Shown here: in pieces, positions 1 through 8,247 of the stretch | Layout: every line of letters starts with the position of its first letter | Position numbering within the stretch: position 1 is the first letter of the stretch | IMG/VR virus record: IMGVR_UViG_2534681834_000008 | Origin: a virus | Taxonomy: Duplodnaviria; Heunggongvirae; Uroviricota; Caudoviricetes | Length of the DNA stretch: 8,247 nt | Strand: one strand, 5' to 3' | Translations under genes and position numbers: made by a program | The notes under the pieces: model-generated | The model's input: only the letters and a program-made list of their open reading frames with translations | Told to the model about the DNA's origin: nothing | Database searches by the model: none

Positions 1-1143
1 CTATGCTGTTTTGATATCTACGATAATCCAGTCTTTACCACGATCATCATTGTATCGGTCGGTCATTTTTCTGGATTTATGGCCTAACAATTTTTGCGTA
101 TCCAGACCCTGTTCCCGATATAACCGTTCTGACAGAGATCGCTGCTCATGAAATGTGGGCGCAGTTCCTTGCTCCCATTTTATGCCACATTTTTCCCGGG
201 CCTTTTTAAAAGCCGTTGTCAGAGTATTTGCAGAAACCTGGTCTCCTCTGTTTGCTTGAGAGGTAGTGTGACGGTAATGGACCAGATATTTACTAACAAC
301 AGCATCCCTGCACTGAGATATAACTTCACGAAGGGTAATATTCAGAGCATCGCATTTCAGGTTAAGCGGAATAGCAAGTTTTGAACCGGTTTTTTCCTGA
401 GTAATGTGCAACATGTCGTCCCATATATCAGAGAATTTCAAATTGCAGATATCGCCTAAACGTTGTCCAGTAACAAGAGCAAGTAGCATGCCGCATTTTA
501 AATAGGGCTGCCGTCTGCTTACGCTTTCAAATATTGCCTGCCATTCGGGCAGTGACAATCTTTGGCGGTTTACTCGATTTCGCGGTTGTTTTGTTGCCTG
601 CGCTGGGTTAAATCCTGGCGGAACATGTCCTGCGTGTTGTGCTTCTTTGAAGACGTCGATCAACACCATTCTCACGACTTGCGCCATCCTGTTATGACCT
701 TCAGCCTTTACAGCATCAATTATTTCGGCAATATCAAGTGCGGTAATATCCTTGAGGTGTTGCATTCCACAATGCTCACGGAAAAGACGAATGGGTTTGC
801 CTTTTTGCCGATAGGAGTTGGGTCTTAGTTCATTATGTTGCAGCCTGTCCTCCTGGATAGAAATATATTTATCAAGCCATTCTGTCACCGTAATGTCTGA
901 GCGCCTGCCTTTCATTCTTTCCAGACGCTCATTGACGCTTAATATTTGTCGGGTACGTTGTTCAGCAATAATGGTATTTGCTTCAGTAGCAACTTGTTTT
1001 GCTTCATTCTCATCAGTTCCTAAGCTATGAAAACGACCGGATAGTGGATGTTTGTATTGCCAATATACCTTTCCGGTTCGCTTATCTAATTTGCAATATA
1101 AATTGGGTATAGAGATTTTGTGAGATCGGGGTCTAGCAGCCAT
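1..1143 (-). CDS. int: Tyrosine site-specific integrase, lambda Int family (complete)
   Basis: 380-aa ORF from the track; reverse-complement stop TAG sits at window positions 1-3. C-terminal catalytic region HEQRSLSERLY ... LLGHKS ... DRYNDDRG parallels lambda Int (HELRSLSARLY / LLGHKS / YRDDRG, recalled). Start ATG at 1143..1141 overlaps the 3' end of the xis remnant, as for lambda xis-int. Overall sequence is clearly not lambda Int itself. Confidence 0.93.
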   Translation of the reverse strand: MAARPRSHKISIPNLYCKLDKRTGKVYWQYKHPLSGRFHSLGTDENEAKQVATEANTIIAEQRTRQILSVNERLERMKGRRSDITVTEWLDKYISIQEDRLQHNELRPNSYRQKGKPIRLFREHCGMQHLKDITALDIAEIIDAVKAEGHNRMAQVVRMVLIDVFKEAQHAGHVPPGFNPAQATKQPRNRVNRQRLSLPEWQAIFESVSRRQPYLKCGMLLALVTGQRLGDICNLKFSDIWDDMLHITQEKTGSKLAIPLNLKCDALNITLREVISQCRDAVVSKYLVHYRHTTSQANRGDQVSANTLTTAFKKAREKCGIKWEQGTAPTFHEQRSLSERLYREQGLDTQKLLGHKSRKMTDRYNDDRGKDWIIVDIKTA

Positions 1144-1321
1144 CAGCGATTATCCGTTGGAGTTTTGGGTTTGCGTTTATTGGGAGTTGCGGTTCTGCAA
1201 GCGTTCCTACAAAACGGGAATTTCGGTCAATCATCCAGTAGCGACCAACTTTTATAGCGGGTGGGGCCATCATTTTCCCTTGCGCGTATTTTTTCAGAAC
1301 TCGCTCACTTGGTGCTAAGTC
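1133..1321 (-). pseudogene. xis: Excisionase (lambda Xis family), 3' fragment separated from its 5' end by IS10
   Basis: Hand translation of the minus strand from 1321 down to stop TAG at 1135..1133 gives DLAPSERVLKKYAQGKMMAPPAIKVGRYWMIDRNSRFVGTLAEPQLPINANPKLQRIIADGC. It joins in frame, through the 9-bp target duplication, to the 5' fragment at 2651..2707. The stop overlaps the int start by 11 nt. Confidence 0.8.
1313..1321. repeat. IS10 target-site duplication, left copy (TGCTAAGTC)
   Basis: Nine bases immediately left of the IS10 outside end are identical to the nine bases immediately right of the inside end (2651..2659). 9 bp is the known IS10/Tn10 duplication length, and the core matches 5 of 6 positions of the recalled hotspot consensus NGCTNAGCN. 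Confidence 0.92.
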
Positions 1322-1344
1322 CTGATGAATCCCCTAATGATTTT
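1322..1344. repeat. IS10 outside-end terminal inverted repeat
   Basis: CTGATGAATCCCCTAATGATTTT; by hand alignment about 17 of 23 positions match the reverse complement of the inside end. Confidence 0.8.
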
Positions 1345-1367
1345 TATCAAAATCATTAAGTTAAGGT

Positions 1368-1436
1368 AGATACACATCTTGTCATATGATCAAATGGTTT
1401 CGCCAAAAATCAATAATCAGACAACAAAATGTGCGA
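1368..1436 (-). ncRNA. IS10 antisense RNA-OUT (approximate coordinates), complementary to the 5' end of the transposase mRNA
   Basis: Placed from recalled IS10 biology: pOUT starts near IS10 bp 115 and transcribes about 69 nt towards the outside end, overlapping RNA-IN and the transposase start codon at 1429. Not derived independently from the sequence; the ends are approximate. Confidence 0.45.
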
Positions 1437-2637
1437 ACTCGATATTTTACACGACTCTCTTTACCAATTCTGCCCCGAATTACACTTAAAACGACTCAAC
1501 AGCTTAACGTTGGCTTGCCACGCCTTACTTGACTGTAAAACTCTCACTCTTACCGAACTTGGCCGTAACCTGCCAACCAAAGCGAGAACAAAACATAACA
1601 TCAAACGAATCGACCGATTGTTAGGTAATCGTCACCTCCACAAAGAGCGACTCGCTGTATACCGTTGGCATGCTAGCTTTATCTGTTCGGGCAATACGAT
1701 GCCCATTGTACTTGTTGACTGGTCTGATATCCGTGAGCAAAAACGGCTTATGGTATTGCGAGCTTCAGTCGCACTACACGGTCGTTCTGTTACTCTTTAT
1801 GAGAAAGCGTTCCCGCTTTCAGAGCAATGTTCAAAGAAAGCTCATGACCAATTTCTAGCCGACCTTGCGAGCATTCTACCGAGTAACACCACACCGCTCA
1901 TTGTCAGTGATGCTGGCTTTAAAGTGCCATGGTATAAATCCGTTGAGAAGCTGGGTTGGTACTGGTTAAGTCGAGTAAGAGGAAAAGTACAATATGCAGA
2001 CCTAGGAGCGGAAAACTGGAAACCTATCAGCAACTTACATGATATGTCATCTAGTCACTCAAAGACTTTAGGCTATAAGAGGCTGACTAAAAGCAATCCA
2101 ATCTCATGCCAAATTCTATTGTATAAATCTCGCTCTAAAGGCCGAAAAAATCAGCGCTCGACACGGACTCATTGTCACCACCCGTCACCTAAAATCTACT
2201 CAGCGTCGGCAAAGGAGCCATGGATTCTAGCAACTAACTTACCTGTTGAAATTCGAACACCCAAACAACTTGTTAATATCTATTCGAAGCGAATGCAGAT
2301 TGAAGAAACCTTCCGAGACTTGAAAAGTCCTGCCTACGGACTAGGCCTACGCCATAGCCGAACGAGCAGCTCAGAGCGTTTTGATATCATGCTGCTAATC
2401 GCCCTGATGCTTCAACTAACATGTTGGCTTGCGGGCGTTCATGCTCAGAAACAAGGTTGGGACAAGCACTTCCAGGCTAACACAGTCAGAAATCGAAACG
2501 TACTCTCAACAGTTCGCTTAGGCATGGAAGTTTTGCGGCATTCTGGCTACACAATAACAAGGGAAGACTCACTCGTGGCTGCAACCCTGCTTACTCAAAA
2601 TCTATTCACACATGGTTACGTTTTGGGGAAATTATGA
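1429..2637 (+). CDS. tnp: IS10 transposase (402 aa, apparently intact)
   Basis: ORF from the track beginning MCELDILHDSLYQFCPELHLKRLNSLTLACHALLDCKTLTLTELGRNLPTKARTKHNIKRIDRLLGNRHL, which I recognise as the IS10/Tn10 transposase. ATG at 1429 is 107 bp inside the outside end, the canonical position. Confidence 0.95.
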   Translation: MCELDILHDSLYQFCPELHLKRLNSLTLACHALLDCKTLTLTELGRNLPTKARTKHNIKRIDRLLGNRHLHKERLAVYRWHASFICSGNTMPIVLVDWSDIREQKRLMVLRASVALHGRSVTLYEKAFPLSEQCSKKAHDQFLADLASILPSNTTPLIVSDAGFKVPWYKSVEKLGWYWLSRVRGKVQYADLGAENWKPISNLHDMSSSHSKTLGYKRLTKSNPISCQILLYKSRSKGRKNQRSTRTHCHHPSPKIYSASAKEPWILATNLPVEIRTPKQLVNIYSKRMQIEETFRDLKSPAYGLGLRHSRTSSSERFDIMLLIALMLQLTCWLAGVHAQKQGWDKHFQANTVRNRNVLSTVRLGMEVLRHSGYTITREDSLVAATLLTQNLFTHGYVLGKL

Positions 2638-2650
2638 GGGGATCTCTCAG
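2628..2650. repeat. IS10 inside-end terminal inverted repeat (contains a GATC Dam site)
   Basis: Plus-strand GAAATTATGAGGGGATCTCTCAG, reverse complement CTGAGAGATCCCCTCATAATTTC; GATC at 2641..2644. Confidence 0.8.
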
Positions 2651-2659
2651 TGCTAAGTC
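2651..2659. repeat. IS10 target-site duplication, right copy (TGCTAAGTC)
   Basis: Identical to 1313..1321 and immediately abuts the IS10 inside end. Confidence 0.92.
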
Positions 2660-2707
2660 CCCAAATTCTTCTTTAGCCCAGTCCTGTAAAGTGATTAGTC
2701 GAGACAT
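2651..2707 (-). pseudogene. xis: Excisionase (lambda Xis family), 5' fragment with start codon and ribosome-binding site
   Basis: Minus-strand ATG at 2707..2705, preceded by AGAGGAGGACAA (GGAGG about 6 nt upstream). Translation MSRLITLQDWAKEEFGDLA; LTLQDW parallels the lambda Xis N-terminus LTLQEW (recalled). In the present sequence the frame runs into IS10 and would end after about 14 foreign codons. Reconstructed pre-insertion protein is 78 aa. Confidence 0.8.
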
Positions 2708-2846
2708 TTGTCCTCCTCTTAGCTGCTGAGGGAGTTTGTGACCGATATATCTGACATGATATTAAGCTCATGGCAGGTACATCTCTTGACTGGTCATAGA
2801 GATAAATTTAATGCTGAGAAATGCAGTATTGAATTTATCAATTTTT

Positions 2847-3742: not shown

Positions 3743-4300
3743 TCATGCAGCCTCCCGACGGGCAAGAATCCTTGAGCCGAACGCCATCAACTCTCCACGA
3801 TCAACGGTCGTAAAGTGGCAGTGTGTACGGGGGTATGGGTGCCAGATAATGAGCATCGAGCCTTTATTATTTCCACTGACGGGTTTCTCAGTGAGTGGGT
3901 TAATAAATGCCAGTCGTCCTGCCGTGATGAATCTGACCTCACTGGCGGTTTGTATCGCTTCATGAAACCATCCGACAGATGTGTCAGCAGGCAATAACAT
4001 TACACATCCCACACTACTGAATTTGTTTTCAGTGGCTGCCTTTTTCACAAAAGGGGAAATATTGCTGTATGGTGGATTCAACCAGACATAACCAGAGGCA
4101 TATCCCATTGCTTCAGGCCATGAAGTGGTTAATGTGTTCTGCTCCTGTGAGATAAAAAGCCGACATAGTCGGTTTTTTTCGCTGGCGGCAGCATCAAGTT
4201 GAAAAACGAACTCTGCATTAAGCGCAGCAAAAATCTCTGGTGGTGTGCGCCAGCTGTCGCGATGTTCGGCAGGAGTATTGCTTCCGGTGAAATCAGTCAT
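3743..4300 (-). CDS. Phage-type DNA N6-adenine methyltransferase (185 aa), apparently orphan
   Basis: ORF from the track with the catalytic NPPY motif in the context YVWLNPPYSNISPF. Its size and layout fit the small phage Dam family rather than host Dam. The start ATG at 4300..4298 overlaps the stop of the upstream small ORF (ATGACTGA). No adjacent restriction endonuclease candidate is visible. Confidence 0.85.
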   Translation of the reverse strand: MTDFTGSNTPAEHRDSWRTPPEIFAALNAEFVFQLDAAASEKNRLCRLFISQEQNTLTTSWPEAMGYASGYVWLNPPYSNISPFVKKAATENKFSSVGCVMLLPADTSVGWFHEAIQTASEVRFITAGRLAFINPLTEKPVSGNNKGSMLIIWHPYPRTHCHFTTVDRGELMAFGSRILARREAA

Positions 4301-6944: not shown

Positions 6945-6982
6945 AAAAGAAAACCCGGCACGGTGGCCGGGACGTTTTATTT
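6945..6982 (-). terminator. Intrinsic terminator (bidirectional in appearance) directly downstream of the DUF4411-like gene
   Basis: GC-rich hairpin CCCGGC (6954..6959) / GCCGGG (6966..6971) with a 6-nt loop. On the minus-strand RNA it is followed by UUUUCUUUU (plus-strand AAAAGAAAA at 6945..6953). On the plus strand it is followed by ACGTTTTATTT (6972..6982). The hairpin begins 5 nt after the stop codon at 6977..6979. Confidence 0.65.
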
Positions 6983-7489
6983 CAAAGAAAAATTATGACT
7001 AGCGTATCTTGGAAGAAATTCATATAGTGTTAATGTCTTAACGCCGTGAGAAGCAGCAGCATCCGGGATCATTATTCTTTTTTTAGGTTTGCCACCGGAT
7101 GGTTTCTCATGGGTAATAATAGTATATCCATGTGTCATCGCATGGGCTATTAAAAAAGCATCTGCTTTTTCATGGCTTGCAAAATCAAACTTTGCCTTTT
7201 CGGTAACATCTAATTTAGTTGACCAATTTATTAACTTTGCATAATTTTCTATTGAACTATGCTCATCTTCGAAGAATGATGATGGTAACTCTTCTTTAAT
7301 CCATTTACACAATGGATCATCTTTTGCACATAGTTCTTTTTTTACAGCATTAATGCTATAAATCAGACCATTAATGTGTAAAGCGAGAAGAAAATCCCAA
7401 AATATTTTGCAATAATTGAAGTTATATGCAAAGTTTTTTGCCTCTATGAAGACATTACTATCAATTAAGAATTTTCCATTATGAATCAT
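6977..7489 (-). CDS. DUF4411-like protein, predicted PIN-like nuclease fold (170 aa)
   Basis: ORF from the track. N-terminal FLIDSNVFIEA resembles the first acidic motif of PIN-like domains, followed by FWDFL, G-IYSI-V-KEL, ADAFLIAHA and a C-terminal IMIPDAAASHGV, which together match my recollection of the DUF4411 family pattern. The start ATG at 7489..7487 overlaps the stop of the upstream peptidase gene as ATGA. The gene is visibly AT-rich compared with the Red genes. Confidence 0.7.
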   Translation of the reverse strand: MIHNGKFLIDSNVFIEAKNFAYNFNYCKIFWDFLLALHINGLIYSINAVKKELCAKDDPLCKWIKEELPSSFFEDEHSSIENYAKLINWSTKLDVTEKAKFDFASHEKADAFLIAHAMTHGYTIITHEKPSGGKPKKRIMIPDAAASHGVKTLTLYEFLPRYASHNFSLK

Positions 7490-8247
7490 AGAGATTCTCG
7501 TTTTTTATAAAATTCAACAACTGTATCTGCTTTTACATTTAGCAGTACGCCTGCTTCCCTTAATGGTAATTGTTGAGACATTGCTTTGGAAATTATTATA
7601 TTCGTAAGTTTTGGACTGTTACGAACAGGTAATGTGTTAAAGAAAGAACCACCATTGGATTCTTTTTTGGGCTTATTGTAAGCTTGATCTTTAATTATCT
7701 CCAAAGTGTTTCTTTCTATCAAATCTAATTGTAACGCTTTGATTGCACAAGCGAAATCACTAACCTTAAATAACTTAGAAACCTCTTTTACTCGATAATA
7801 ATTATTATCGCTGGATGCATTAAGCCAGAAAGATTTGAAGAGATTATCAGGCATTAAGATTTCAGCAGCAACTTTATTACAAAAAGATTCTATGTTTTTT
7901 TCTGTGTCCCACCCAGAGACTCCATCGACTCCAAGCCAAAGATGAGCCACCTCATGAAATAATGTAAATACCTGCGCAGATAACGCGTCCGAGCTATTTA
8001 CAAAAATGATCGGAGCAACGCTATCAGATATACAGAAACCACGAAACTCTCGCGTGTCAAGTTTTCTTTTATTATTATTACCCACAACACCATTCTTGAA
8101 AACTAATACGCCAGTGTCTTCTATTAGTTTTGCCACTTTAGAAAAATAGCTCTCAAAAGTGACATTTTTTATCTCTTTTTGTATATCAAAATGTATTGTG
8201 TTTGCTATGTCTGTAGCAACAACCTTATAATTTAATTTTCTATTAAA
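7486..8247 (-). CDS. ImmA/IrrE-family HExxH metallopeptidase domain protein, 5'-partial (gene continues past the window end)
   Basis: Contains FTLFHEVAHLWLG, the HExxH zinc-binding signature in the context typical of ImmA/IrrE proteins. The track ORF (7486..8136) starts at a GTG, but hand translation of the minus strand from 8247 shows 37 more in-frame codons with no stop (FNRKLNYKVVATDIANTIHFDIQKEIKNVTFESYFSK...). That is unlikely by chance in such AT-rich DNA, so the true start, and probably an N-terminal domain, lies outside the window. Confidence 0.75.
   Translation of the reverse strand, partial: FNRKLNYKVVATDIANTIHFDIQKEIKNVTFESYFSKVAKLIEDTGVLVFKNGVVGNNNKRKLDTREFRGFCISDSVAPIIFVNSSDALSAQVFTLFHEVAHLWLGVDGVSGWDTEKNIESFCNKVAAEILMPDNLFKSFWLNASSDNNYYRVKEVSKLFKVSDFACAIKALQLDLIERNTLEIIKDQAYNKPKKESNGGSFFNTLPVRNSPKLTNIIISKAMSQQLPLREAGVLLNVKADTVVEFYKKRESL

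Follow-up and report, generated by a model that had tools for sequence, protein, structure and literature searches.

In lambda-type systems, Int alone integrates the phage and Xis is required to form the excisive complex on attR. The decay of prophages through insertion sequences and the target preference of IS10 are both textbook matters. Prophages that have become immobile through mutation of int, xis or att are called 'grounded' or cryptic and have been reviewed (PMC6379469). The loss of Xis is not equal to the taming of a prophage, because the excision-defective delta xis/int form of Gifsy-1 still kills its host upon induction (PMC10433948). For IS10, the target consensus is NGCTNAGCN (PMC4574204, PMC2744996), adjacent genes can be driven by pOUT, and the same nucleotide is re-used by the element in independent events (PMC2744996, PMC4574204).

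The locus described here lies in a window (the whole stretch of DNA that was analysed, 8,247 nucleotides) that holds 8.2 kb of a prophage, with the att sites, the repressor and the late genes lying outside. As in grounded prophages and lambda xis mutants, the directionality factor is lost, the integrase is kept and the prophage is predicted to be stuck. There is an inactivating lesion, xis::IS10, next to an intact int. The locus differs from the described grounded prophages in that its immobility is predicted from sequence and in that the cause is IS10 at a repeatedly used site.

The interrupted excisionase gene

A sequence-only reading of this DNA had reported a complete 1329-bp IS10 with both ends, flanked by perfect 9-bp direct repeats, and all of these positions are correct to the base (Table 1). 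It had also proposed that removal of IS10 and one repeat restores a 78-aa minus-strand ORF that has a GGAGG ribosome-binding site and a stop codon overlapping the start of int. This reconstruction is confirmed, wherein the restored ORF has 237 nucleotides and encodes exactly 78 aa, and its stop codon (1133-1135) precedes the int ATG (1141-1143) on the top strand to give an 11-nt overlap. The restored 6909-bp sequence has 0 mismatches to NZ_CP025753.1 4012122-4019030 from E. coli CV839-06, a related strain that carries the same prophage uninterrupted by IS10; ETEC1731 is another relative in which the site is empty. There, the 78-aa ORF is annotated as the excisionase WP_000088653.1 (RefSeq). 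The Red genes, a Dam-type methyltransferase gene and the neighbouring cargo in the window, which had been called apparently intact, are identical to those of this uninterrupted prophage.

Table 1. Features of the int-xis region and of the inserted element (window coordinates)
Feature	Position	Strand	Remarks
int	1..1143	-	complete 380-aa lambda-type tyrosine integrase with arm-binding domain (phage-21/icd type)
xis 3' fragment	1133..1321	-	includes left target copy; last 11 nt overlap int
Internal ORF in xis 3' fragment	1133..1273	-	46 aa; starts at Met33
Target-site duplication, left copy	1313..1321		TGCTAAGTC; xis nt 49-57, codons 17-19
IS10 (complete, IS10-left variant of Tn10)	1322..2650	+	1329 bp; imperfect terminal inverted repeats
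IS10 outside end	starts 1322		CTGATGAATCCCC...
RNA-OUT antisense RNA	1367..1436	-	Rfam RF00240
IS10 transposase gene	1429..2637	+	intact ORF, 402 aa; Pfam DDE_Tnp_1, NCBIfam transpos_IS4_2
xis 5' fragment	2606..2707	-	native codons 1-19 (2651..2707), then IS10 inside end
IS10 inside end	finishes 2650		...GGGGATCTCTCAG
Target-site duplication, right copy	2651..2659		TGCTAAGTC
xis ribosome-binding site	2712..2716	-	GGAGG, 5 nt upstream of ATG

The sequence-only reading had assigned the split gene to the lambda-family excisionases, and alignment of the restored protein to Xis families upholds this assignment. Its exact sequence carries the UniRef name VXIS_BPP21 (phage 21 Xis) and is found on at least 1000 contigs. 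The protein scores 26.5 bits against Pfam Exc (PF07825; cut-off 23) and matches the excisionase family PHROG 629 with an E value of 5e-36. There is no match in NCBIfam, and phmmer against the PDB returned chance Ig-domain matches only. A BLASTP comparison with lambda Xis (NC_001416) gives a weak match to lambda residues 3-47 (21% over 47 aa), such that the link to lambda Xis is made through Pfam, PHROGs and this weak match. Judged by these families, what IS10 has split is a genuine excisionase gene.

The genomic context agrees with this identity, in that a small gene lies at the prophage end, upstream of, overlapping and co-oriented with a tyrosine integrase gene, as is expected for xis. The int product scores 98.9 bits against Pfam Arm-DNA-bind_1 and 84.3 bits against Phage_integrase, and it shares 35% identity with lambda Int over the full length (E 2e-65). 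In CV839-06 the same gene is annotated as a site-specific integrase, and the int-xis pair adjoins icd in this genome as well as in NZ_CP053785 and NZ_CM166349. The integration site of phage 21 and e14 is icd. The module is intact in phage 4A7 (genus Bievrevirus, ICTV-classified), where it lies next to an icd fragment and includes a 100% identical xis. As in lambda, xis directly precedes int and the two genes overlap; unlike in phage 21, the gene in the window is broken after codon 19, leaving no intact xis ORF. The annotation of the window should thus be corrected to a xis pseudogene interrupted by IS10-left.

Identity of the inserted element

The element shows the features that characterize IS10. 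It measures 1329 bp, its terminal inverted repeats (CTGATGAATCCCC... and CTGAGAGATCCCC...) are imperfect, and a perfect direct repeat of TGCTAAGTC lies on either side. The target core, GCTAAGT, agrees with GCTNAGC at five of six positions and the site resembles the consensus NGCTNAGCN, as had been expected from the habit of IS10 to duplicate 9 bp at GCTNAGC-like sites. The element encodes one transposase, an intact DDE enzyme of 402 aa, which scores 402 bits against the NCBIfam IS4 transposase model (transpos_IS4_2) and differs from the IS10-right type at four amino acids. RNA-OUT lies at the outside end, antisense to the start of the transposase gene, and matches RF00240 over the full model (positions 1-70) with 97.3 bits (gathering score 41).

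At the DNA level, the element shares 100% identity with the gltS-side copy of Tn10 in R100 (NC_002134.1 36132-37460), whose gene product is WP_001352368.1. There are 15 differences from the other R100 copy, located beside tetC and an adjacent HTH gene that is presumably tetD. With left and right assigned from the Tn10 gene order in R100 and the map of Tn10, the inserted element is IS10-left of Tn10 and not IS10-right. It shares with the IS10-left of Tn10 the terminal repeats, the 402-aa transposase, RNA-OUT and the 9-bp duplication at a GCTNAGC-like site, and it differs in being a solo copy in the chromosome, outside Tn10.

IS10-left is the less active arm of Tn10. It has moved nonetheless, both in the window and in strain 13TMH22, where an identical copy is present at another location. 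The insertion in 13TMH22 was considered as a possible instance of the same event and rejected, since that copy lies within the int gene of another prophage, one located at tRNA-Thr. Transposition of IS10-left has also been observed in NEB5alpha (PMC11481808).

The arrangement is not a product of chance, since other genomes have the site empty and the inserted DNA matches a known insertion sequence with 100% identity. One might suppose that it arose by a jump in a Tn10- or IS10-bearing cloning host or during passage, or by misassembly, given the well-documented cases in which IS10 has jumped into cloned DNA in laboratory hosts (PMC4574204, PMC11481808). In addition, the window's own insertion is absent from the complete E. 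coli genomes searched, and searches of GTDB species representatives, JGI metagenomes and IMG/VR for the exact IS10-xis junction gave no match. However, the clean junctions and the perfect 9-bp duplication are those of real transposition rather than misassembly, and the same site is also filled by IS10 in natural isolates. A natural source of IS10 is at hand in the lineage, because related porcine strains carry IS10-left copies: the plasmid of one such strain has two identical copies, consistent with Tn10, and the ETEC1747 chromosome matches the window in 15 places that are probably IS10 copies. We therefore regard a laboratory or assembly artefact as very improbable.

Recurrent use of one target site

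There are two other complete E. coli genomes in which the same 9-bp target is occupied, each by an IS10-right-type copy. The copy in NZ_CP053785 has the same orientation as that in the window and the copy in NZ_CM166349 has the opposite one. IS10 entered the target independently in both genomes. This target is the only site within xis that agrees with GCTNAGC at five of six positions. With IS10 repeatedly entering the sole near-consensus site in the gene, its target preference suffices to account for the insertion. Disruption is nevertheless rare, because the intact target site is present in 1623 of 5426 complete genomes, and all but five of the 1628 complete genomes that match keep it uninterrupted.

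There is a second class of defective xis genes. On 33 contigs elsewhere, the 46-aa C-terminal ORF has been annotated as a gene in its own right, and these contigs were considered as candidates for xis genes broken by an insertion sequence. They were rejected because most of them carry a one-nucleotide deletion in an A6 run. The resulting A6-to-A5 frameshift is another null allele of the same xis and occurs on about 30 contigs. The 33-aa product predicted for the 5' fragment, comprising 19 native and 14 IS-encoded residues, has no exact counterpart among genes on record elsewhere.

Perhaps xis disruption has been selected repeatedly, such that the insertion is adaptive and stabilizes a useful prophage, with pOUT possibly adding constitutive Int in the absence of Xis. 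This proposal could draw on the fact that one 9-bp site has received IS10 three times independently, from two IS10 variants and in both orientations, on the frameshift alleles described above, on the fact that RNA-OUT and pOUT face int, and on candidate useful cargo that includes the Red genes, the Dam methylase, Iss, Lom and a defence-like ImmA/DUF4411 pair. Yet the site is the sole near-consensus target for IS10 in xis, IS10 is known to return to one site in the absence of selection on the function disrupted (PMC2744996, PMC4574204), and pOUT faces away from int in NZ_CM166349. The large majority of uninterrupted genomes also argues against it, as does the observation that locked prophages still kill when induced (PMC10433948). 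We consider an adaptive insertion unlikely. The more specific proposition that the site is a convergent IS10 target, with xis::IS10 and the frameshift alleles positively selected and pOUT-driven Int favouring the integrated state, is one to which we give little credence.

Predicted consequences for excision and for int

The best explanation for the locus is that a free IS10-left, acting as an insertion sequence and moved by its usual cut-and-paste transposition, entered a phage-21-type lambdoid prophage at icd through the sole near-consensus target in xis, where 9 bp were duplicated. The gene is cut within the N-terminal stretch that can be aligned to lambda Xis, and no intact Xis can be made. 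The predicted products that remain are the 33-aa N-terminal stub and at most the 46-aa C-terminal piece. Poor excision is expected because lambda-type excision needs Xis on attR, a requirement that is established for lambda and applied to phage 21 by analogy. The loss of Xis, and with it of efficient excision, can be soundly inferred, and the prophage is probably stranded in the chromosome.

Adequate excision might still be achieved if Xis were supplied in trans by a second prophage, if IS10 were precisely excised or if Int acted independently of Xis. Some genomes hold two copies of the xis region, which is the maximum observed and would permit complementation, and the perfect 9-bp repeats are a substrate for precise excision of Tn10 and IS10. 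However, genomes carry a median of one copy, precise IS10 excision is rare, and lambda xis mutants are strongly excision-defective. Such a rescue of excision thus seems improbable.

The closest relatives of this prophage provide evidence on its general condition. Of three comparators that are base-identical or near-identical, the two that were examined, CV839-06 and ETEC1747, match the window with 100% identity once the insertion sequence is set aside, and in both the tail gene J is a pseudogene with an internal stop. In CV839-06, IS1 is also present, the lysozyme gene contains an IS3 and the tape-measure gene is broken. The prophages of the other two IS10-occupied genomes are visibly degraded: in NZ_CP053785 bet is truncated and a replication gene is cut by IS1, and the NZ_CM166349 prophage carries IS1. 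Because J is broken in the comparators, the prophage had probably already lost the ability to produce infectious particles.

These observations raise the prospect that the insertion is functionally irrelevant, wherein IS10 merely occupied a preferred site in the dispensable DNA of a dead remnant. We judge this to come close to an even chance. For the strain of the window itself, however, the late region lies outside the view, and the state of J is taken from the comparators. Moreover, a prophage defective in J can still excise, replicate, kill its host or be lost, so that the loss of Xis alters its stability. There is overlap, and no conflict, between this reading and the best explanation. We consider it quite probable that an IS10-left insertion governed by target preference removed Xis from a probably already decaying icd prophage, for which very poor excision is expected.

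The insertion may also have changed the expression of int. IS10 cuts int off from its upstream phage promoters, and transcription from pOUT is predicted to start at 1436 and to proceed towards the end of the element, the xis remnant and int. A simple scan for sigma-70 promoters found none in 1100-2900 and was too strict to detect pOUT; therefore, its position is based on the RNA-OUT match and the literature. Low, unregulated transcription of int without Xis would then be possible, and pOUT may drive int expression in the window. A similar architecture has been described for otsBA::IS10 (PMC2744996), where the outside end with RNA-OUT and pOUT likewise reads into a same-strand neighbour, and the re-use of one nucleotide position by independent events is common to both. 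The present case differs in that pOUT-driven int is deduced from orientation and in that one of the three natural insertions is oppositely oriented.

The sequence-only reading had seen in this locus the domestication of a prophage by an insertion sequence. The part of this claim that stands is that IS10 disrupts xis. The wider interpretation fares less well, as J is already broken in the comparators, target preference suffices and the loss of Xis is not taming. Most plausibly, IS10 followed its target preference into a prophage that was probably already decaying, and the event was not a selected domestication step.

The event is real and ordinary. It represents a known kind of prophage decay that is most simply explained by IS10 target preference, and its value lies in a clear, verifiable example and a correction to the annotation; it raises no new question. 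What is new here is the IS10-left identity, the orientation of pOUT, the recurrent 9-bp target, the rarity of the disruption and the broken J in the closest comparators. Given that the phage-21-type int-xis module is found at icd in about 30% of complete genomes, the locus illustrates one concrete route to lost mobility for a widespread E. coli prophage, in which a single 9-bp site in xis serves as a repeat target for IS10. For the strain, the prophage and its cargo are predicted to be hard to cure or transfer, and the host may still die on induction.

Insertion anatomy and the restored excisionase gene

The outside end of the IS10 (CTGATGAATCCCCTAATGATTTT) is the start of the element and its inside end (GGGGATCTCTCAG) is the finish. 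Its length and the perfect 9-bp repeat flanking it, both claimed in the sequence-only reading, match the window sequence exactly. When the IS10 and one repeat copy are deleted in silico, the minus strand carries a 237-nt ORF whose 78 residues are precisely those proposed in that reading, and the described ribosome-binding site and overlap with int are also present, as a GGAGG located 5 nucleotides upstream of the ATG and a final 11 nucleotides shared with the int start codon. The same prophage is found without IS10 in CV839-06, where positions 4012122-4019030 of NZ_CP025753.1 match the restored 6909 bp at every base, and BLAST gives 100% identity to two more porcine ETEC chromosomes. The structural claim is right, being backed by exact matches.

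Features of the insertion and its surroundings in the window
Feature	Position	Strand	Basis
int, complete, 380 aa	1-1143	minus	lambda arm-binding domain and tyrosine-recombinase catalytic domain
9-bp direct repeat TGCTAAGTC	1313-1321 and 2651-2659		read from sequence
IS10	1322-2650		1329 bases between the repeats
RNA-OUT, full-length	1436-1367	minus	Rfam, 97.3 bits (gathering score 41)
Transposase ORF, 402 aa, single, intact	1429-2637		Pfam DDE_Tnp_1; NCBIfam IS4 transposase, 402 bits

The assignment of the restored ORF to the Xis family is borne out. RefSeq labels it excisionase WP_000088653.1 in CV839-06, and its product scores 26.5 bits against Pfam Exc (PF07825; cut-off 23 bits) and E 5e-36 against PHROG 629 'excisionase'. 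The exact 78-aa sequence is found on at least 1000 contigs of a protein collection, where its UniRef name, 'Excisionase ... RepID=VXIS_BPP21', denotes Xis of phage 21. In BLASTP, residues 5-51 pair with residues 3-47 of lambda Xis (NC_001416) at 21% identity (E 0.001, a single-comparison value). The product of int, which lies downstream of xis, shares 35% identity with lambda Int along its whole length. Three comparators were examined at that end (L001 from CV839-06, L003 from isolate 2-101 and L004 from CH4794), and in each the int-xis pair directly adjoins icd, the known attachment site of phage 21 and e14. Phage 4A7 (NC_049946, genus Bievrevirus) has the same int and xis beside an icd fragment, with xis plus flanks 100% identical to the window prophage across 320 nt; thus, the module also exists intact in the genome of a phage that has been sequenced and classified by ICTV.

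The IS10 enters at xis nt 49-57, so that only codons 1-19 are still connected to the promoter and the ribosome-binding site, and it interrupts the N-terminal stretch that BLASTP aligns with lambda Xis. Translation of the interrupted gene is predicted to give a 33-aa stub, in which 14 IS-encoded residues follow 19 native ones, and at most a 46-aa piece from Met33. By any reasonable reading of the sequence, xis::IS10 would be a null allele.

There is an apparent different null allele of the same gene, in which an A6 run (CTGAAAAAATAC) at xis nt 75-80 (equivalent to window 1290-1295) has lost 1 nt, splitting xis into 32-aa and 46-aa ORFs with an ATGA overlap (loci L010-L017). About 30 contigs of varied origin encode the 32-aa product and at least 1000 the intact protein; the deletion is either real variation or a homopolymer error. 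In several draft assemblies, including loci L009 and L018, contigs stop inside xis (nt 95-97), which is some 40 nt further downstream than the IS10 site, and proteins of 39-46 aa labelled 'excisionase, partial' are numerous. This recurrent break could be a mosaic boundary common to two prophages or another insertion.

IS10-left and its outward promoter

We rejected canonical IS10-right as the identity of the element, which is instead 100% identical to the R100 copy at NC_002134.1 36132-37460; that copy encodes WP_001352368.1 and is the one at the gltS side of Tn10. It differs at 15 positions from the second R100 copy, which encodes WP_001339197.1 and adjoins tetC and a helix-turn-helix gene, presumably tetD. 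The standard Tn10 map places IS10-left on the gltS/jem side and IS10-right on the tetD side. Identical IS10-left copies are widespread, with 100% matches in at least 25 plasmid records. The source description of one such plasmid (H126, matched at two places in the record) fits CV839-06, the empty-site comparator, and 15 places in ETEC1747 match the window and are most probably IS10 copies. A donor within the same lineage is therefore plausible.

From the position of RNA-OUT, pOUT is predicted to fire towards the IS end at 1322 and onwards into the xis remnant and int, both of which lie on its strand. There is no difference between the window's IS10 and IS10-right-type copies at element positions 108-202. 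This stretch takes in the sequence immediately upstream of the RNA-OUT start, the predicted location of the pOUT -10 and -35 elements. Adjacent genes can be switched on by pOUT (PMC2744996, citing Simons 1983).

A second case of IS10-left in a prophage integration/excision gene is found in 13TMH22 (L002 8005-9333, NZ_CP019256.1), where a copy 100% identical to that of the window lies inside int of a different lambdoid prophage at tRNA-Thr, with the 9-bp repeat CCCTGAGTT.

Recurrence at one 9-bp site

Complete E. coli genomes were searched with a 240-bp probe spanning the empty site. Of 5426 such genomes, 1623 have the site unbroken, almost always with identity of at least 99%. With junction probes, IS10 is found in this site in only two complete genomes, those of isolate 2-101 (NZ_CP053785; bird of prey, Portugal), oriented as in the window, and CH4794 (NZ_CM166349; human, Sweden), oriented oppositely. 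Both have the same 9-bp target and duplication as the window, both copies are IS10-right-type with 16 differences from the window's IS10, and the two prophages differ in cargo. Judged from these sequences, the three insertions are independent.

The restored 6.9 kb has no site that matches GCTNAGC perfectly. Among its 34 matches at five of six positions, the only one inside xis is the site used, and IS10 is documented to strike one nucleotide repeatedly in independent experiments (PMC4574204, PMC2744996). Target preference is therefore sufficient to explain the recurrence. Convergent, selected inactivation of xis would be another explanation. With the site unbroken in 1623 of the 1628 matching genomes, nothing indicates that disruption is strongly selected. 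The data do not favour that explanation.

The prophage of 2-101 is a remnant of roughly 7 kb, in which a truncated bet is fused to part of a regulator and IS1 interrupts the replication gene (L003 13198-15554, NZ_CP053785.1).

Prophage state and neighbourhood

The Red genes, methyltransferase and cargo had been read as apparently intact, and the remaining genes of the window are indeed intact and identical to the uninterrupted comparator. These comprise DUF4222, a TraR/DksA zinc finger, kil, lambda-type exo (YqaJ), bet (RecT family), gam, a Dam-type N6-adenine methyltransferase, a DUF4411 protein and the C-terminal part of an ImmA/IrrE-type metallopeptidase. The DUF4411 protein (170 aa) is encoded directly downstream of the M78 metallopeptidase (6977-8247, minus strand), which matches the PADLOC models capP (E 4.5e-15) and RmrA. 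This pair is found in only some relatives of the prophage; it looks like accessory cargo, possibly defence-related. Cargo also differs between prophages at the methyltransferase slot (window 3743-4300), which holds a DGQHR-domain protein in 2-101 (L003 11305-12369), H6 and H7.

In CV839-06 (L005 32867-37604, NZ_CP025753.1), the phage-21-like prophage is arranged in tandem with a remnant of the e14 type (a pin pseudogene, an AAA ATPase and mcrC) followed by an icd' fragment, and thus two elements occupy one icd site. The remnant and icd' fragment at the tail-fibre end are absent there in ETEC1747, whose tail-fibre end instead adjoins zinT/msrPQ/hprRS (L019 7228-9598, NZ_CP122722.1). This junction points to a rearrangement of the chromosome that has an endpoint where the prophage stops.

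In lambda, Int and IHF carry out integration, and excision additionally needs Xis, which bends attR and recruits Int; lambda xis mutants excise very poorly. Given this requirement and the homology, it is reasonable to expect that the prophage should be excision-defective. The block is leaky in principle, through a second copy of this xis in some genomes or rare precise IS excision via the perfect 9-bp repeats. Outside the IS, the window does not differ from CV839-06 or ETEC1747, each of which carries an internal stop in tail gene J; CV839-06 has further lesions (IS1, IS3 in the lysozyme gene, a broken tape-measure gene). These comparator lesions suggest that the lineage was probably already unable to form infectious particles, the late genes lying outside the window.

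The framing of the insertion as domestication is tempered by the broken J in the comparators, by the leaky block and by the fact that a stuck prophage is not a harmless one: Gifsy-1 lacking xis and int can still kill its host on induction (PMC10433948). Published work already holds that recombinase-gene mutations "ground" prophages (PMC6379469), and the event is ordinary IS-mediated prophage decay. What is added here is the IS10-left identity, a pOUT predicted to point towards int, three independent strikes on a single 9-bp target, the observation that a very common intact allele is rarely disrupted, and signs of an already-defective prophage lineage.
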